This document shows positions 19,591 to 24,853 of a DNA stretch of 64,000 nt, one piece after another; the first letter of the stretch is position 1; the number at the start of each line of letters is the position of its first letter. The DNA comes from an uncultured Micavibrio sp. GTDB lineage: Bacteria > Pseudomonadota > Alphaproteobacteria > Micavibrionales > Micavibrionaceae. The DNA lies in contig CAYGJS010000003.1 of NCBI GenBank assembly GCA_964350435.1, forward strand, positions 39,168 to 103,167. The letters run 5' to 3'. Under the pieces are notes generated by a model. That model was not told the DNA's origin and ran no database searches. It worked only from the letters and a program-made list of their open reading frames with translations. Both the position numbers and the translations under genes were made by a program.

Positions 19591-20640
19591 GTGTCCGCCG
19601 CGAAATCAAAAAATACTCAATCCAAGAAGCAGGCTTCCTCGAAGGGTGTTTCAACAAAATCGAATGTTTCCACTGAGCCTACGGTAGAGGATCTCAAAAA
19701 ATATTACCGCGATATGCTTCTTATTCGCCGCTTTGAAGAAAAGGCGGGGCAGCTCTACGGGATGGGGTTGATTGGCGGGTTTTGCCATTTGTATATCGGG
19801 CAAGAGGCTGTGGTGACGGGGATTACTTCGGTGAATGAGCCGCAGGATACGGTTGTGACTGCCTATCGCGATCATGCGCATATGCTGGCCTGCGGGATGG
19901 AGCCGCGCGGCATTATGGCGGAATTGACGGGTCGTGAGGGCGGATATTCGCGCGGTAAGGGTGGATCGATGCATATGTTTTCCAAGGCAGAAGGGTTTTT
20001 CGGCGGCCATGGGATTGTCGGCGCGTCGACGGCGATTGGCACAGGGCTTGGATTTGCGCATAAATATAAGGGCGATAATGGCGTTGCTGTGGCCTATATG
20101 GGGGATGGAGCGTCTAACCAAGGGCAGGTCGCGGAATGTTATAACATGGCCGCGCTTTGGGATTTACCAGTTTTGTTTGTGATCGAGAATAATCAATACG
20201 GGATGGGAACATCCGTTAAGCGGTCTTCTGCGGGGACTTTGTACCGGCGCGGGGAGGGATATGGTATTCCCGGCGAGCAGGTGGACGGCATGGATATATT
20301 CGCTGTTCAGGCCGCTGCGCGTCAGGCGCTTGATTATATTCGCACCGGAAACGGGCCTTATATTTTGGAAGTGATGACGTATCGGTATCGCGGGCATTCT
20401 ATGTCTGACCCTGCGAAATACCGCACGAAAGAAGAGGTTGACGGCATGAAGCAGGATCGTGACCCGATTACGATGATCAAGGATATGCTTCAGGCGCGCG
20501 GGGTTGCCGAGGCGGATATCAAAGAGATTGATAAAGAGATTAAAGAGATTGTGAATGATGCGGCGAGCTTTGCGCAAGAATCCCCCGAGCCTGCGGCGGA
20601 AGAATTATGGACCGATGTCTTGGTTGAGGAGCGTGTGTAA
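19591..20640 (+). CDS. pdhA: pyruvate dehydrogenase E1 component alpha subunit
   Basis: 349 aa. TPP-binding pattern GDGASNQG...NNQYGMGT and YRYRGHSMSDP. Confidence 0.95.
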   Translation: MSAAKSKNTQSKKQASSKGVSTKSNVSTEPTVEDLKKYYRDMLLIRRFEEKAGQLYGMGLIGGFCHLYIGQEAVVTGITSVNEPQDTVVTAYRDHAHMLACGMEPRGIMAELTGREGGYSRGKGGSMHMFSKAEGFFGGHGIVGASTAIGTGLGFAHKYKGDNGVAVAYMGDGASNQGQVAECYNMAALWDLPVLFVIENNQYGMGTSVKRSSAGTLYRRGEGYGIPGEQVDGMDIFAVQAAARQALDYIRTGNGPYILEVMTYRYRGHSMSDPAKYRTKEEVDGMKQDRDPITMIKDMLQARGVAEADIKEIDKEIKEIVNDAASFAQESPEPAAEELWTDVLVEERV

Positions 20641-22080
20641 ATGCCAGTGAATATTTTAATGCCGGCGTTGTCGCCGACAATGACCGAAGGGAATTTGGCC
20701 AAGTGGTTGAAGGCTGAAGGTGACCGTGTGGATGCGGGGGATGTGATCGCCGAAATTGAAACCGATAAGGCCACCATGGAAGTTGAAGCTGTGGATGAAG
20801 GTATTTTGGGTAAAATTCTTGTCGCCGAAGGCACTGAAGGCGTAGCGGTGAATGATGTGATTGCGGTATTGCTGGAAGAGGGCGAGAGCGCGAATGATAT
20901 TGGCGAATATAAAAAGCCCTCACCCAACCCTCTCCCTGAGGGAGAGGGCAATGAAGCTTCGCCCTTAGGCGTTAGCGGAGTGGGCGAGGGGGGCGTTCAA
21001 CAACCTCAAGGGGCTGTGGTAGAAAATCGCGACATTTTATATGCGCAAGGGGTGGTGACACCGCCGCCGCCGTTTGACGAGGCGAGTTTTACCGAAACCA
21101 AGCCGATGACTGTGCGGGATTCTTTGCGTGATGCGATGGCTGAGGAAATGCGCGCCGATGATAGCGTGTATTTGATGGGCGAGGAAGTTGCGGAGTATCA
21201 GGGGGCGTATAAGGTTTCGCAAGGATTGCTCGATGAGTTCGGCGCAAAGCGCGTGATTGATACGCCGATTACCGAGCATGGATTTGCGGGTTTGGCTGTG
21301 GGGTCGGCGATGAGCGGCCTTAAGCCTATTGTTGAATTTATGACGTGGAATTTCGGCATGCAGGCGATTGACCATGTGATTAACTCGGCGGGGAAAACGC
21401 TGTATATGGCGGGCGGGCAGCTTGGGTGTTCGATTGTTTTTCGCGGCCCGAATGGCGCGGCCAGCCGTGTGGGCGCGCAGCACTCGCAGTGTTATGCGTC
21501 CTGGTATGCGCATGTTCCGGGTTTGAAGGTGGTTGCGCCTTGGTCGGCAGCGGATGCAAAGGGTTTGATGAAGGCGGCGATCCGCGATCCGAACCCGGTC
21601 GTGTTTTTGGAAAATGAAATGCTGTACGGCGAAACATTTGATGTGCCAACCGCCGAAGATTTCGTGATTCCTCTGGGGCGCGCGAAGATTGAGCGTGCGG
21701 GCGCGGATGTGACGATTGTTGCGTTTTCTATCATGGTGGGCAAAGCCCTGAAAGCGGCGGAGAAATTGGCGGAGATAGGAATTGATGCGGAAGTGATTAA
21801 CCTTCGCACCATTCGTCCGCTTGATCGGCATACGATTTTGGAGAGCGTCAAGAAAACCAACCGCATTGTGACCTGCGAAGAGGGCTGGCCATTCGCAGGG
21901 ATCGGCGCGGAGATTGCGGCGTTGATCGGCGAGCATGCGTTTGATTATCTGGATGCGCCGCTGGCGCGCGTACACGCCGCCGATGTGCCTTTGCCGTATG
22001 CGGCGAATTTGGAGGCTTTGGCCTTGCCGCAAGTCGATCAAATACTCCAAGCAGCGAAGAAGGTTTGTTATGCCGATTGA
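20641..22080 (+). CDS. pdhB: pyruvate dehydrogenase E1 component beta subunit with N-terminal lipoyl domain
   Basis: 479 aa. Lipoyl domain ([13 protein letters not shown]), Pro/Gly-rich linker, transketolase-like pyrimidine-binding and C-terminal domains. Confidence 0.95.
22070..22078. repeat. left copy of the direct repeat ATGCCGATT (putative target-site duplication)
   Basis: ATGCCGATTgA at 22070-22080 against ATGCCGATTaA at 22568-22578. Confidence 0.7.
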
Positions 22081-22567
22081 TTGTTCAAACGCGGAGATAC
22101 AGAGAAGCGGAGTGGTCTTATTGTAATGTCCAGTGTGCTTCGTAAGTATGATGATTTTTCATCTGATATGAATGTTCTGTCGGGCGCGATTGTTGATTGT
22201 GCGTTTCAGGTTCATAAAGAGCTTGGCCCCGGGTTTCTTGAAATGAATTATGAAGATGCCTTTGTTTATGAACTGGGATTAAAGGGTTTAGCATTTGAGC
22301 GCCAAAAACCTCTCAAAATTCCGTATAAAGAGGTTGTTCTTCATTCTGAGTTTCGTTTTGATCTGTTGGTTGAGGGAAGGGTTTTGGTTGAACTGAAAGC
22401 TGTGGAGAAAATTCATCCTGTTCATCAGGCTCAGATTTATGCCTATTTAAAAGCTACGCGGATTGAGCTGGGGCTTTTGATTAATTTTAATGTTCCACTT
22501 ATTAAGGATGGAATTGGCCGTTATGTGCTCCGAAACTCTGAAACTCCGCGTTTAAAAAAGGAAAATC
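22079..22567 (+). mobile_element. putative inverted-repeat-bounded cassette carrying GxxExxY gene 1
   Basis: Flanked by the ATGCCGATT direct repeat. Imperfect terminal inverted repeats AAACGCGGAGaTaCAGAG (22087-22104) and CTCTGaAaCTCCGCGTTT (22536-22553). CGGAG/CTCCG subterminal repeats are spaced 16 nt apart at both ends. The interior looks more AT-rich than the pdh genes. Confidence 0.5.
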
Positions 22568-22578
22568 ATGCCGATTAA
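22126..22578 (+). CDS. GxxExxY family protein (PD-(D/E)XK nuclease-like fold)
   Basis: GPGFLEMNYE (GxxExxY) and DLLVEGRVLVELK (D...ExK). ATG at 22126. The track ORF starts at the TTG at 22081. The last 15 aa are encoded by the right inverted repeat plus the duplicated junction. Confidence 0.85.
   Translation: MSSVLRKYDDFSSDMNVLSGAIVDCAFQVHKELGPGFLEMNYEDAFVYELGLKGLAFERQKPLKIPYKEVVLHSEFRFDLLVEGRVLVELKAVEKIHPVHQAQIYAYLKATRIELGLLINFNVPLIKDGIGRYVLRNSETPRLKKENHAD
22568..22576. repeat. right copy of the direct repeat ATGCCGATT (contains the pdhC start codon)
   Basis: Identical 9-mer to 22070-22078. Confidence 0.7.
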
Positions 22579-23842
22579 TGTGACGATGCCGGCGCTTTCG
22601 CCGACGATGACGGAAGGGACTTTGGCGAAATGGCTGAAGGCCGAAGGGGATAGGGTTGAGGCCGGTGACGTGATTGCCGAAATTGAAACCGATAAGGCGA
22701 CGATGGAAGTCGAGGTCGTTGATGAAGGGGTTTTGGGCAAGGTTCTCGTGGCGGCTGGCACCGAAGGAGTGGCCGTGAATGCGGTGATTGCGGTTTTGCT
22801 GGAAGACGGCGAGAGTGCGGGTGATATAGGTGATGCGTCATTGCGAACCGCAGGTGAAGCAATCCAGCCCAAAAAGGAAAAAGAGGTTGAGGTTGGTAAT
22901 GGATTGCCGCGTCGCGAAAATGCTCCTCGCAATGACGATTTTGATAAAGGGGCGCGTATTTTTGCATCGCCTTTGGCGAAACGGATTGCGGCGGATAAGG
23001 GAGTTGATCTCTCAAGTCTTAAAGGCTCCGGGCCGCGTGGGCGGATTGTGAAGGCGGATGTTGAGAATGCGAACGCGGGGGGCATTTCTGCTCCTGCTCC
23101 TGCGGTGGTTTCCTCTAAGGCTTTGCCAGAGGGGGCAAAGACCAATATTTACGGCATGGCTTATGTTGAGAAGCCGATCAATAATATTCAGAAAATTACC
23201 GCGAAACGCTTGCTGGAATCCAAAACTACGGTGCCGCATTTTTATCTGACGGTTGAGTGCGATCTTGAAAATTTGCTCGCTGCGCGTTCGGATCTTAATG
23301 AAGCCGCAAATGGTGCGTTCAAGTTATCTGTGAATGATTTTATCATCAAGGCCTCGGCGATGGCGCTGAAAGCCTATCCAGCGGCAAATGTGAGCTGGCA
23401 GGACACATCGGTGTATCAATATTTGACATCCGATATTTCGGTAGCGGTGGCAACGCCAAACGGTTTGATCACCCCGATTATCCGCAGCGCAGAGGAAAAG
23501 GGATTGCGCCAGATTTCCGATGAAATGAAAGCCTTGGCGGGGCGGGCTCGTGAGGGCAAGCTTAAGCCTGAAGAATTTCAGGGGGGCGGTTTTTCTATCT
23601 CGAACCTTGGGATGTTCGGGGTGAAGGATTTTGCCGCGATTGTGAACCCGCCGCAGAGCTGCATTCTGGCTGTTGGGGCGGGCGAGAAAATGCCGCGCGT
23701 TGTGAACGGCGAGATTGTCATTCGTACGGTGATGAATGTTACGCTTTCTACGGATCACCGCACGGTTGATGGCGCGGTTGGCGCGGAGTGGCTGCAGTTC
23801 TTTAAACGGTATATTGAAAATCCAGTGAGTATGCTGGTTTAA
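22568..23842 (+). CDS. pdhC: pyruvate dehydrogenase E2 (dihydrolipoyllysine-residue acetyltransferase)
   Basis: 424 aa. Lipoyl domain, E3-binding domain (ASPLAKRIAADKGVDL), catalytic domain with the DHRTVDG motif. Confidence 0.95.
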   Translation: MPINVTMPALSPTMTEGTLAKWLKAEGDRVEAGDVIAEIETDKATMEVEVVDEGVLGKVLVAAGTEGVAVNAVIAVLLEDGESAGDIGDASLRTAGEAIQPKKEKEVEVGNGLPRRENAPRNDDFDKGARIFASPLAKRIAADKGVDLSSLKGSGPRGRIVKADVENANAGGISAPAPAVVSSKALPEGAKTNIYGMAYVEKPINNIQKITAKRLLESKTTVPHFYLTVECDLENLLAARSDLNEAANGAFKLSVNDFIIKASAMALKAYPAANVSWQDTSVYQYLTSDISVAVATPNGLITPIIRSAEEKGLRQISDEMKALAGRAREGKLKPEEFQGGGFSISNLGMFGVKDFAAIVNPPQSCILAVGAGEKMPRVVNGEIVIRTVMNVTLSTDHRTVDGAVGAEWLQFFKRYIENPVSMLV

Positions 23843-23844
23843 AA

Positions 23845-24296
23845 TTTTTAACACGAAGCGAATAAGATGCACGAAGCTGTTCAGCGTTTAGAAACACCTT
23901 CTTTTGATTTTGAGCCATTATCAAGAGAGATTGTTGATTGTGCTTTCCAAATTCACCAGACTATAGGGGCTGGTTTGTTAGAGGGTGTTTATGAAGATTG
24001 TTTTGAGATTGAGCTGAAAAAGCGCAATATCGCTTTTGAGCGTCAAAAAATAATTAAGGTGGAATATGCAGGCGTTTTTATTCCGACAACATACAGGTTG
24101 GATTTGGTTGTCGAGGGCAGAATTATTGTTGAGTTGAAAAGCGTTGAAAAAATTATACGGGCTCATCAGGCTCAAATTCTGACGTATATGAAAACTTCTG
24201 ATATTAAAATCGGGCTTATTATAAATTTTGGAGATCCATATTTTAAATCAGGCGTTAAACGCTTCGTGTTATAACTTCTTTGCTTCGTGTTAAAAA
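23845..24296 (+). mobile_element. putative inverted-repeat-bounded cassette carrying GxxExxY gene 2
   Basis: Perfect 15-bp terminal inverted repeat TTTTTAACACGAAGC (23845-23859) / GCTTCGTGTTAAAAA (24282-24296). A nested second pair is CACGAAGC (23870-23877) / GCTTCGTG (24261-24268). Confidence 0.45.
23867..24274 (+). CDS. GxxExxY family protein (PD-(D/E)XK nuclease-like fold), paralog 2
   Basis: 135 aa. GAGLLEGVYE and DLVVEGRIIVELK. By eye, about half of the aligned residues are identical to the 22126..22578 product. Confidence 0.85.
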   Translation: MHEAVQRLETPSFDFEPLSREIVDCAFQIHQTIGAGLLEGVYEDCFEIELKKRNIAFERQKIIKVEYAGVFIPTTYRLDLVVEGRIIVELKSVEKIIRAHQAQILTYMKTSDIKIGLIINFGDPYFKSGVKRFVL

Positions 24297-24310
24297 AAGG
24301 AATTGTTATT

Positions 24311-24853
24311 ATGATCAATCGAAGGCCAATCGTCGGTGTTATGGGTTCGCATGAACATGAGTGGGAAGATTTTGCTGATCCTGTTGGGGATTTGCTTGCG
24401 CGGCGCGGGTTTAATCTGCTGACCGGTGCGGGCGAGGGCGTGATGACCTGCGTGGCGCGTGCGTTTACCCAAGTAAAGAACCGTGAGGGTGTGGCGATCG
24501 GGATTTTGCCGGCGGTGGATTACAAGGGGCAGAATTTGAATGAAGCGGAGTATCCTAATCCTTATATCGAAATTCCGATGATTACGCCGCTGTCTATGAA
24601 AGCGCAGAGTGATATTATGCCGTTTTCCCGCAATTTAACGAATGTTATGACGAGTAAGGCCTTGATTATTTTACCGGGATCGCATGGGACGAAGAACGAG
24701 GTGTCGCTTGCTCTTATGTATGACAAGCCAATGATATTGTTTGGGCCGGAGCACGCGTTTGATAGTTTTCCAGAGGAGCCCCTGCGCGCTGAAGACATTA
24801 CGCATGTGGCGCAGTTTCTGGATGATGTTTTCGGGAAGGATGAAGATGAGTGA
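24311..24853 (+). CDS. TIGR00725/LOG-family (SLOG superfamily) Rossmann-fold nucleotide-binding protein
   Basis: IVGVMGS...LLTGAGEGVMTCVARAF...ILPGSHGTKNEVSLAL, matching the LOG-type GxGxxG...PGGxGTxxE pattern. ATG at 24311 with an AAGGA RBS. Confidence 0.7.
   Translation: MINRRPIVGVMGSHEHEWEDFADPVGDLLARRGFNLLTGAGEGVMTCVARAFTQVKNREGVAIGILPAVDYKGQNLNEAEYPNPYIEIPMITPLSMKAQSDIMPFSRNLTNVMTSKALIILPGSHGTKNEVSLALMYDKPMILFGPEHAFDSFPEEPLRAEDITHVAQFLDDVFGKDEDE

Follow-up and report, generated by a model that had tools for sequence, protein, structure and literature searches.

A stretch of 64,000 nucleotides (nt) from an uncultured Micavibrio sp. (contig CAYGJS010000003.1, positions 39,168 to 103,167), referred to below as the window and in whose own numbering all coordinates are given, carries an alphaproteobacterial pyruvate dehydrogenase (PDH) operon. 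On the + strand, its genes follow each other in the order pdhA, pdhB, a 150-amino-acid (aa) open reading frame (ORF), pdhC, a 135-aa ORF, a SLOG/LOG-like gene (LOG for short), an unknown 200-aa gene, lpdA and lipA. The two small ORFs are the only copies of the GxxExxY family in the 64 kb, and each of them sits between the arms of an imperfect inverted repeat, the whole forming what we call cassette 1 (at pdhB|pdhC) and cassette 2 (at pdhC|LOG). These cassettes are sense-orientation insertions into gene junctions of the PDH operon, the first of which split an 11-nt overlap between pdhB and pdhC that is now present on both of its flanks. Both are ancient and have been inherited vertically, under purifying selection of the same strength as for pdhC, and their arms have been kept complementary by compensatory changes.

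Anatomy of the two cassettes

The features of cassette 1 are as follows.
22070-22080, + strand: left copy of a direct repeat, ATGCCGATTGA, containing the stop codon of pdhB, TGA, as well as a relic pdhC start (exact common substring of 9 nt, p=0.00)
22070-22126, + strand: 18-codon leader ORF, from the relic pdhC start (Shine-Dalgarno (SD) sequence AAGAAGG) and ending as TAATG on the cassette 1 start codon (from the sequence; ORF 21935-22126)
22081-22112, + strand: left arm, TTGTTCAAA-CGCGGAG-ATA-CAGAG-AAG-CGGAG, T-rich at its outer end, then three units (inverted repeat, z-score 7.5)
22126-22578, + strand: GxxExxY gene 1, 150 aa, with a core that runs to RYVL (22530) and a tail, LRNSETPRLKKENHAD, that is the translated right arm and SD region (ORF list, profiles)
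22528-22559, + strand: right arm, CTCCG-AAA-CTCTG-AAA-CTCCGCG-TTTAAAAAA (inverted repeat; the minimum-free-energy (MFE) and centroid RNA folds close here)
22544-22563, + strand: 20-nt right terminus, composed of outer arm unit, A-run and the GGAA of the pdhC SD (alignment with the cassette 2 terminus)
22568-22578, + strand: right copy of the direct repeat, ATGCCGATTAA, which holds the pdhC start (9-nt exact common substring)

Those of cassette 2 and of the host genes are the following.
23845-23866, + strand: left arm, TTTTTAACACGAAGCGAATAAG, which abuts the nuclease start codon (inverted repeat 91%, z-score 9.8)
23867-24274, + strand: GxxExxY gene 2, 135 aa, with the D79/E89/K91 triad intact (ORF list, profiles, alignment, AlphaFold2 model with a predicted local distance difference test (pLDDT) of 89)
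24255-24277, + strand: inner second copy of the right-arm unit, in the last codons (KRFVL-stop), 83% complementary to 23843-23865
24275-24296, + strand: right arm, CTTCTTTGCTTCGTGTTAAAAA (inverted repeat; the MFE and centroid RNA folds close here)
24283-24302, + strand: 20-nt right terminus, composed of arm unit, A-run and GGAA (alignment with the cassette 1 terminus)
19591-20640, + strand: pdhA, host operon gene
20641-22080, + strand: pdhB (E1 beta, with an N-terminal lipoyl domain; ORF list, orthologues carrying PF00364, PF02779 and PF02780)
22568-23842, + strand: pdhC (E2), the host gene between cassettes 1 and 2 (ORF list, aligned with orthologues)
24311-24853, + strand: SLOG/LOG-like gene, 3' of cassette 2 (PF18306, 94 bits)

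The two ORFs encode members of a known protein family, since they score 141.7 and 140.2 bits against TIGR04256 (cut-off 35) and 135.6 and 141.5 bits against PF13366, also known as PDDEXK_3 (cut-off 22). When both are aligned with relatives (30 sequences in all), G36, E39 and Y42 of the GxxExxY motif and D79, E89 and K91 of the PD-(D/E)XK catalytic triad do not vary. AlphaFold2 gives a confident model (pLDDT 89.4), for which the top fold matches in the PDB are Cas4, a splicing endonuclease and lambda exonuclease, all of them weak (E-values from 2e-3 to 0.1, TM scores of 0.3-0.5). A sequence search of the PDB found no solved relative, PADLOC gave a weak Cas4-like match only and PHROGs none. The function of the GxxExxY family is listed as unknown (PMC3424549), and in the literature searched, where mentions are few and in passing, we found no paper treating it as part of an element.

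Attention had first been drawn to this region by the right ends of the cassettes, CTCCGCGTTTAAAAAAGGAA (22544-22563) and CTTCGTGTTAAAAAAAGGAA (24283-24302), which a preliminary description had counted by eye as 17/20 identical, a figure that alignment reproduces (85%). The same holds for the other readings made by eye, that is, an ATG just downstream of each terminus (that of pdhC, at 22568, after 4 nt and that of the SLOG/LOG-like gene, at 24311, after 8 nt), proteins about half identical (49% over 135 aa, gap-free) and cores that both end in R(Y/F)VL (RYVL and RFVL, residues 132-135 of the two proteins). The termini start 14 nt (cassette 1) and 12 nt (cassette 2) past these homologous codons, and they are spaced by 1739 nt, compared with 1741 nt for the in-register repeats of the ORFs, from which it follows that the 17/20 match is more than chance. 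A degenerate 17-mer of the terminus occurs in the 64 kb at these two places only, plus one site with 3 mismatches, and A4+GGA is found upstream of pdhC and the SLOG/LOG-like gene only, among ~53 called genes (the SLOG/LOG-like gene, absent from the greedy call, was read directly).

The preliminary description had missed the fact that the termini form the right arms of two inverted repeats, the best in the region, which span 22081-22112 / 22528-22559 in cassette 1 (32 nt, 78% complementary) and 23845-23866 / 24275-24296 in cassette 2 (22 nt, 91% complementary) and whose z-scores of 7.5 and 9.8 are relative to shuffles, 0/100 of which were as good. The shared terminus is therefore composite, consisting of the outermost right-arm unit, an A-run that pairs with the T-rich outer end of the left arm and, outside the repeat, a GGAA SD typical of the genome. 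Its outermost units differ between the cassettes (CTCCGCG in the first, CTTCGTG in the second) and the left arms differ complementarily (CGCGGAG and CACGAAG), the third mismatch being one extra T in cassette 1.

This bears on the alternative that we are dealing with ordinary operon genes that arose by local duplication of a resident accessory gene, and whose 3' flanks are alike only through an A-rich SD. AAGG/AAGGA-type SDs are indeed common in this genome, where they are the usual type, so the match over the last ~6 nt of the terminus is partly generic, and to that extent the concern that the similarity merely reflects a shared A-rich SD was justified. It does not extend to the arm units, whose differences are compensated in the left arms, nor does it sit well with the restriction of A4+GGA to these two downstream genes.

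Insertion and descent in the PDH operon

Close relatives of the window (L004, L005, L166-L168, L170 and others), which were retrieved singly via the closest homologues, differ in which junctions are occupied. L004 and L005 carry an orthologue of cassette 2 after pdhC and no cassette at pdhB|pdhC, while an orthologue of cassette 1 is present in L166, L167 and L170/L171, all of which are without cassette 2 (the empty junction is pdhC|LOG in L170 and L171, and pdhC|lpdA in L166). Cassette-1-type copies occupy pdhA|pdhB in L168 and L075, and one further relative has copies at kdsA|eno and after pdhA. At pdhC|lpdA, L167 and L168 harbour an ORF-less hairpin of the cassette unit type, which is followed by AAAAAGGAATAAAAAATG in the former and has a 28-bp stem in the latter (predicted -45.9 kcal/mol, z = -8.7). 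The 'empty' site in L004 resembles the right end of a cassette and may be a deletion footprint. All the cassettes in the alphaproteobacterial kdsA-eno-pdh cluster (10/10) are co-oriented with it, which agrees with the earlier suggestion that the elements had entered junctions of an essential operon in the sense orientation, as does the family-wide tally given below (51 '++' to 5 '--').

The site of cassette 1 can be reconstructed at the nucleotide level. In L005, the empty pdhB/pdhC site reads gtttgttATGCCGATTAAagt, and the two genes overlap there by 11 nt. This overlap is the ATGCCGATTRA repeat found on both sides of cassette 1 (10/11 nt match), the left copy of which keeps the pdhB stop and the right copy the pdhC start; among orthologues of cassette 1, decay of the left copy took a different course in every lineage. 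The inserted DNA runs from the left arm to ...AAAAAAGGAAAATC, and because the former SD of pdhC, located within pdhB, remained beside the left copy, the SD that pdhC uses now came with cassette 1. An alternative to this donation of a ribosome-binding site (RBS) is that the duplication was longer and included the host SD, as it may have been. For cassette 2, the empty pdhC|LOG site of L170 already has AAAGG before the LOG start, and its SD may therefore be host DNA. The proposal that each element donates the RBS of the downstream gene is thus upheld for cassette 1, whose GGAA falls within the DNA bounded by the duplicated ATGCCGATTRA, and remains doubtful for cassette 2. To judge from the reading frames, cassette 1 would be a case of an insertion that splits overlapping essential genes with both still translated.

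Two further peculiarities of cassette 1 concern how its own gene starts and ends. The leader ORF that runs from the relic pdhC start into TAATG probably couples translation to that of nuclease gene 1; a comparable leader is open in L166 and L170 and closed in L167. As for the end, nearly all relatives of protein 1 finish with ...RYVLRNSE[ST]PR at 142 aa, their TAA stop lying inside CGCGTTAAAAA. The extra T in cassette 1 removes this usual TAA, with the consequence that ORF 1 runs on to a TAA in the pdhC start region. It thereby ends within the right-hand copy of the direct repeat, shares 11 nt with pdhC and stops at the same TAA, in the same register, as pdhB does in the uninterrupted arrangement. 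Together, the leader ORF and a read-through tail that recreates the 11-nt overlap with pdhC suggest adaptation after insertion.

Both cassettes have been in place for a long time. That they belong to one element family, as had been claimed, is borne out by their common protein family, their collinearity through the 3' flank and the equal architecture of their arms. The further claim that they are old copies and no recent tandem duplicate is confirmed by the finding, for both of them, of relatives elsewhere that are closer than the other cassette (76-79% identity). Between genomes, cassettes and host genes show parallel levels of identity (64-79% at the aa level for cassette 1, 63-84% for pdhC), synonymous sites are saturated, the non-synonymous divergence (dN) of the cassettes equals that of pdhC, and the ratio of dN to synonymous divergence (dS) is 0.07-0.18. 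The arms have evolved in concert. The left arm of cassette 1 is conserved and covarying among orthologues, AACACGAAG of the cassette 2 left arm is conserved in L004 and L005, and in seven cassette-1-type copies, taken from three kinds of junction, compensation by double changes is seen in 8/25 arm pairs, a result obtained in 0/500 shuffles and approached by no slid register. These covarying pairs are all full Watson-Crick double changes, with no one-sided G-U changes. While vertical inheritance of both copies under purifying selection is also what would be expected of ordinary operon genes, copies that are 49% identical, belong to different subfamilies and have closer relatives elsewhere argue against a local duplication, and so does the variable occupancy of the junctions among relatives.

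GxxExxY genes and unit-repeat hairpins across bacteria

The same anatomy recurs across the family, which comprises 36,521 clusters at 50% identity (GxxExxY/PF13366). We surveyed 160 further loci from many phyla, in genomes and metagenomes, with only distant relatives among the matches listed. A flanking inverted repeat with a score of at least 12 brackets 122/157 GxxExxY genes (78%), compared with 11/452 control ORFs in the same loci (2.4%), and this contrast across phyla, added to the points made above, means that the ordinary-gene explanation, to which we give next to no credence, is effectively already refuted. The arms are made of 1-4 tandem 7-mers, CRCNRAG on the left and CTYNGYG on the right, at 8-9-nt spacing, with unit variants such as CACAGAG, CGCAAAG, CACGAAG, CGCAGAG, CGCGGAG and others; in the lineage of the window they are capped by a T-run (left) and an A-run (right). 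When proteins are compared with termini, as the preliminary description had proposed, a protein and its nearest neighbour agree in arm unit type in 58/130 cases, where chance would give 14%.

Around 67 genes, the closest repeat clusters come in the order left-type, right-type ('F|R'); around 9 genes, the order is the opposite ('R|F'). That the latter have reversed arms was considered and rejected, since the ORF lies there between two complete hairpins and a left-then-right pair reads alike on both strands; they represent instead a minority layout, hairpin-ORF-hairpin. Hairpins also occur without any ORF. The fetched loci contain 72 of these, dispersed and tandemly clustered in many genomes. 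In one locus (L008, 2324-2716), seven clusters of CTTCGTG units follow each other in tandem with a period of 62-63 nt, just 3' of a GxxExxY gene. Many of the top family matches (P0241-P0256 and others) are proteins of ~270-295 aa with two GxxExxY domains, that is, tandem cassettes fused or read through.

As in the window, the genes tend to lie within operons. In 51 loci both neighbours point the same way as the cassette gene and in 5 both point the opposite way, a bias that is not clearly stronger than for ordinary genes in same-strand runs. Occupied junctions include nuoC|nuoD, trpE|trpG, livH|livM, tkt|gap, ?|sdhA and atpE|atpF, and one cassette sits upstream of gatC, at the head of gatCAB. 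GC content at third codon positions (GC3) is lower in the cassette than in its neighbours in 76/83 loci, by ~0.15, and tracks that of the host (r = 0.80). The GxxExxY protein family is known, and its cassettes, typically a nuclease gene in a unit-repeat hairpin that lies co-directionally within a core operon, apparently form a very large, undescribed class lodged in housekeeping operons across bacteria.

Origin, possible mechanism and known counterparts

The cassettes are most likely ancient and mobile-element-derived, since fixed, with a mode of movement that we infer. The full explanation that we lean towards, as probable rather than secure, is that a cassette is a ~125-135-aa PD-(D/E)XK GxxExxY gene in the loop of a long imperfect inverted repeat, with an origin as a mobile element. 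The inverted repeat would mark the ends of the element or form a DNA hairpin or cruciform, and the nuclease would break DNA so that the ORF gets copied into a junction or an existing hairpin, or else it would maintain hairpins as RAYT does REPINs, the ORF-less hairpins being non-autonomous or decayed derivatives. Within the transcript of the operon, the arms would pair, looping out the cassette, hiding the nuclease start and exposing the A-rich SD before the next gene. Nuclease gene 1 would probably be translated by coupling to the leader ORF from the duplicated pdhC start, and the read-through tail of cassette 1 would restore the former 11-nt stop/start overlap with pdhC.

Predicted RNA folds of both cassettes (MFE and centroid) close with the terminal stem and leave AAGGAA unpaired, the stem predicted for cassette 2 buries the start of nuclease gene 2, and no promoter or terminator signals beyond chance were detected at the cassettes. 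A terminal stem, a free AAGGAA and the lack of such signals would explain how the operon tolerates its inserts. They are equally at home in a different scenario, which is that the cassettes act as RNA, in the manner of an intervening sequence (IVS), RNase III cutting the stem formed by the arms, which would excise the cassette RNA and leave pdhC or LOG with a processed 5' end before its SD, so that the DNA repeat would be a mere template. The layout matches that of 23S rRNA IVSs, in which an ORF lies within a ~28-bp terminal-repeat stem that is cut by RNase III (PMC4990558). Besides the closing stem, the unpaired SD and the absence of a terminator, the sense orientation in operons fits, and so do the candidate four-helix-bundle ORFs of L025, which are also inverted-repeat-bracketed outside rRNA. 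Pairing at the RNA level should favour G-U over A-C mismatches, yet the two are symmetric in the arms (52 and 45, with no G-U excess), and the covarying pairs are all full Watson-Crick double changes. An IVS-like role also leaves the dispersed, tandemly clustered ORF-less hairpins, the tandem-unit arms and the conservation of the nuclease active site without an account. The balance of mismatches, the lack of one-sided G-U changes and the dispersed or clustered ORF-less copies favour pairing at the DNA level or symmetric recognition, and we consider processing of the IVS type rather unlikely as the whole explanation, although the two models are compatible, and both live, since they do not exclude each other.

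Several findings weigh against a mobile-element origin. In a plasmid collection, the family is found in 8/72,556 records, all of which are predicted to be non-mobilizable and five of which exceed 400 kb, and a phage collection gave 0 family matches, which leaves no evident vehicle for horizontal spread. Two exact proteins present on multiple contigs, checked for recent mobility, each have a single context. There is no family-wide target-site duplication, as the longest common flank averages 4.66 nt compared with 4.35 nt in controls, so the 11-nt repeat at cassette 1 may be a one-off. The hairpin-ORF-hairpin loci leave room for more than one kind of basic unit, and the window itself holds no ORF-less hairpin in its 64 kb. 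The AT-ward GC3 offset persists despite long residence, holding even for vertical copies past synonymous saturation. To our knowledge, a 125-aa PD-(D/E)XK nuclease is incapable of strand transfer alone. Finally, a gene that is purely selfish would seldom be kept under strong purifying selection through so long a vertical descent, which points to a function.

A further alternative is that the cassettes were captured by a recombinase, as in integrons, the hairpin being an attC-like site for an enzyme encoded elsewhere and the nuclease its cargo. One can invoke for this the minority layout (9 'R|F' genes), with near-identical ~110-nt hairpins as direct repeats in L006, the existence of tandem two-domain fusions and an unrelated 122-aa secreted ORF with a right-arm-like 3' end that is polymorphic at gatC|gatA. 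The main layout, in which the ORF lies between the arms and no attC is found 3' of it, speaks against capture, as do the occurrence of single cassettes in housekeeping operons with no arrays beside an integrase, a cargo that is nearly always one protein family in the sampled loci and an arm unit type that follows the protein phylogeny. We consider it very improbable. Cassettes of integrons do share with ours a small promoterless ORF that has an imperfect palindrome and is expressed from an upstream promoter; they differ in that the arms here flank the ORF and no array or attI/attC core sites were seen, an integrase not having been searched for specifically.

If the mobile-element origin is retained, the question becomes which known system comes closest, and REPIN-RAYT, ORF-bearing rRNA IVSs, homing endonuclease genes and miniature inverted-repeat transposable elements (MITEs) each fail at least one defining feature here. 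Free-standing homing endonuclease genes of the phage seg/mob type are small nuclease genes that sit, non-disruptively, between conserved co-transcribed genes. The cassettes resemble them in having a nuclease gene between intact conserved genes and a presence that varies among relatives. Homing endonuclease genes, however, have no bracketing inverted repeats or ORF-less hairpins, whereas the cassettes are chromosomal, cellular, long-term vertical residents, absent from the phage collection, and we know of no cleavage of an empty allele by a GxxExxY nuclease. The suggestion that these elements behave like homing endonuclease genes or integron-like cassettes is thus right as to behaviour but overlooks the anatomy that defines them, because the tandem-unit inverted repeat around the ORF and the ORF-less hairpins bring them closer to REPIN/RAYT, MITE-like elements or rRNA IVSs.

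With REPIN-RAYT (PMC3116915; PMC5581495; bioRxiv 10.1101/2021.07.10.451892), the cassettes share (i) an enzyme gene flanked by inverted copies of a short palindromic repeat, (ii) in many fetched loci and in the relatives L167 and L168, though not within the 64-kb window, the presence of the same repeat type as ORF-less hairpins elsewhere, (iii) vertical inheritance, with housekeeping-like purifying selection and long persistence, and (iv) a repeat type that co-varies with the protein lineage. They differ in their enzyme, which is a PD-(D/E)XK protein (PF13366 being its sole family match) instead of the HUH Y1 transposase, IS200/IS605-like, that is RAYT, as well as in their tandem 8-9-nt arm units, their operon-junction sites and their many gene copies in many genomes. 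ORF-bearing IVSs of 23S rRNA (S23p/four-helix-bundle; PMC4990558) are similar in that a small ORF lies within terminal inverted repeats that give a long transcript stem, that they are tolerated in an essential transcription unit and that their distribution is sporadic, with a suspected mobile ancestry. The host here is a PDH mRNA at an operon junction and not an rRNA helix, the stem is predicted, and the nuclease is under strong purifying selection, unlike S23p, which is decaying in Coxiella (PMC4990558). MITEs and transposons with terminal inverted repeats also have short ORF-less derivatives, and the 11-nt flanking duplication, at cassette 1 only, is reminiscent of them; what sets the cassettes apart is the lack of a DDE or other transposase and of a target-site duplication of fixed length, together with a strong bias in operon-junction position and orientation.

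A bolder proposal, which we offer tentatively, is that GxxExxY nucleases and CRCNRAG hairpins form an undescribed, pan-bacterial system of autonomous and non-autonomous elements, a PD-(D/E)XK counterpart of RAYT/REPIN, that colonises tight junctions of housekeeping operons (pdh, nuo, atp, trp, liv, sdh) and would persist because the hairpin insulates expression and imprecise loss is lethal. It would possibly be, besides REPIN-RAYT, a second pair of repeat and enzyme that persists vertically. The anatomy of the element gives the GxxExxY family a testable biology, since it provides the enzyme with a defined DNA or RNA partner, and reading these loci as cassettes explains recurrent 'extra' genes and odd low-complexity tails and, presumably, the mis-annotation of some such proteins as respiratory subunits.

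A few minor observations concern the surroundings of the cassettes. A protein of the window recurs identically on three short contigs from metagenomes. Between pdhC and lpdA, the window, L004 and L170/L171 carry the SLOG/LOG-like gene, the unknown ~200-aa gene 3' of it is present in the window and L004 and absent from L170/L171, and L005, L166, L167 and L168 are without both. Gene content between pdhC and lpdA thus varies among relatives, which makes this junction a hot spot of gene gain and loss beyond the GxxExxY cassette. Within pdhC itself, the inter-domain linker (22836-22937) contains a perfect 11-nt inverted repeat, CGTCATTGCGA / TCGCAATGACG, in the coding sequence, which translates as ...SLRTAGEAIQ...GLPRRENAPRNDD and resembles an in-frame palindromic repeat element; ...APRNDD is found at the equivalent place of the linker also in L166. 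A coding palindromic stretch, CCCTCACCCAACCCTCTCCCTGAGGGAGAGGGC, lies in the pdhB linker after the lipoyl domain (~20920-21000) and may be a second in-frame insertion of a repeat element in a flexible linker.

Other observations come from the fetched loci. Rfam gave no match, whether for this region of the window (permissive E-value) or for ten of the loci (gathering scores). At gatC|gatA, a 122-aa ORF with a signal peptide is present in L179 (3086-3454) and absent from L181 (2800-2820), the GxxExxY proteins of the two being 100% identical; it has a right-arm-like AACTTCGATCCTTCGCGTAAA at its 3' end and no left arm. Other families of small ORFs are also bracketed by strong inverted repeats, among them candidates picked by eye as four-helix-bundle proteins like those of 23S rRNA IVSs (L025, 2379-2738 and 6648-7058) and a candidate small nuclease of the GIY-YIG type that lies between CGTCATCCCGGCGAAAGCCGGGATC-type palindromes (L019, 715-1008).

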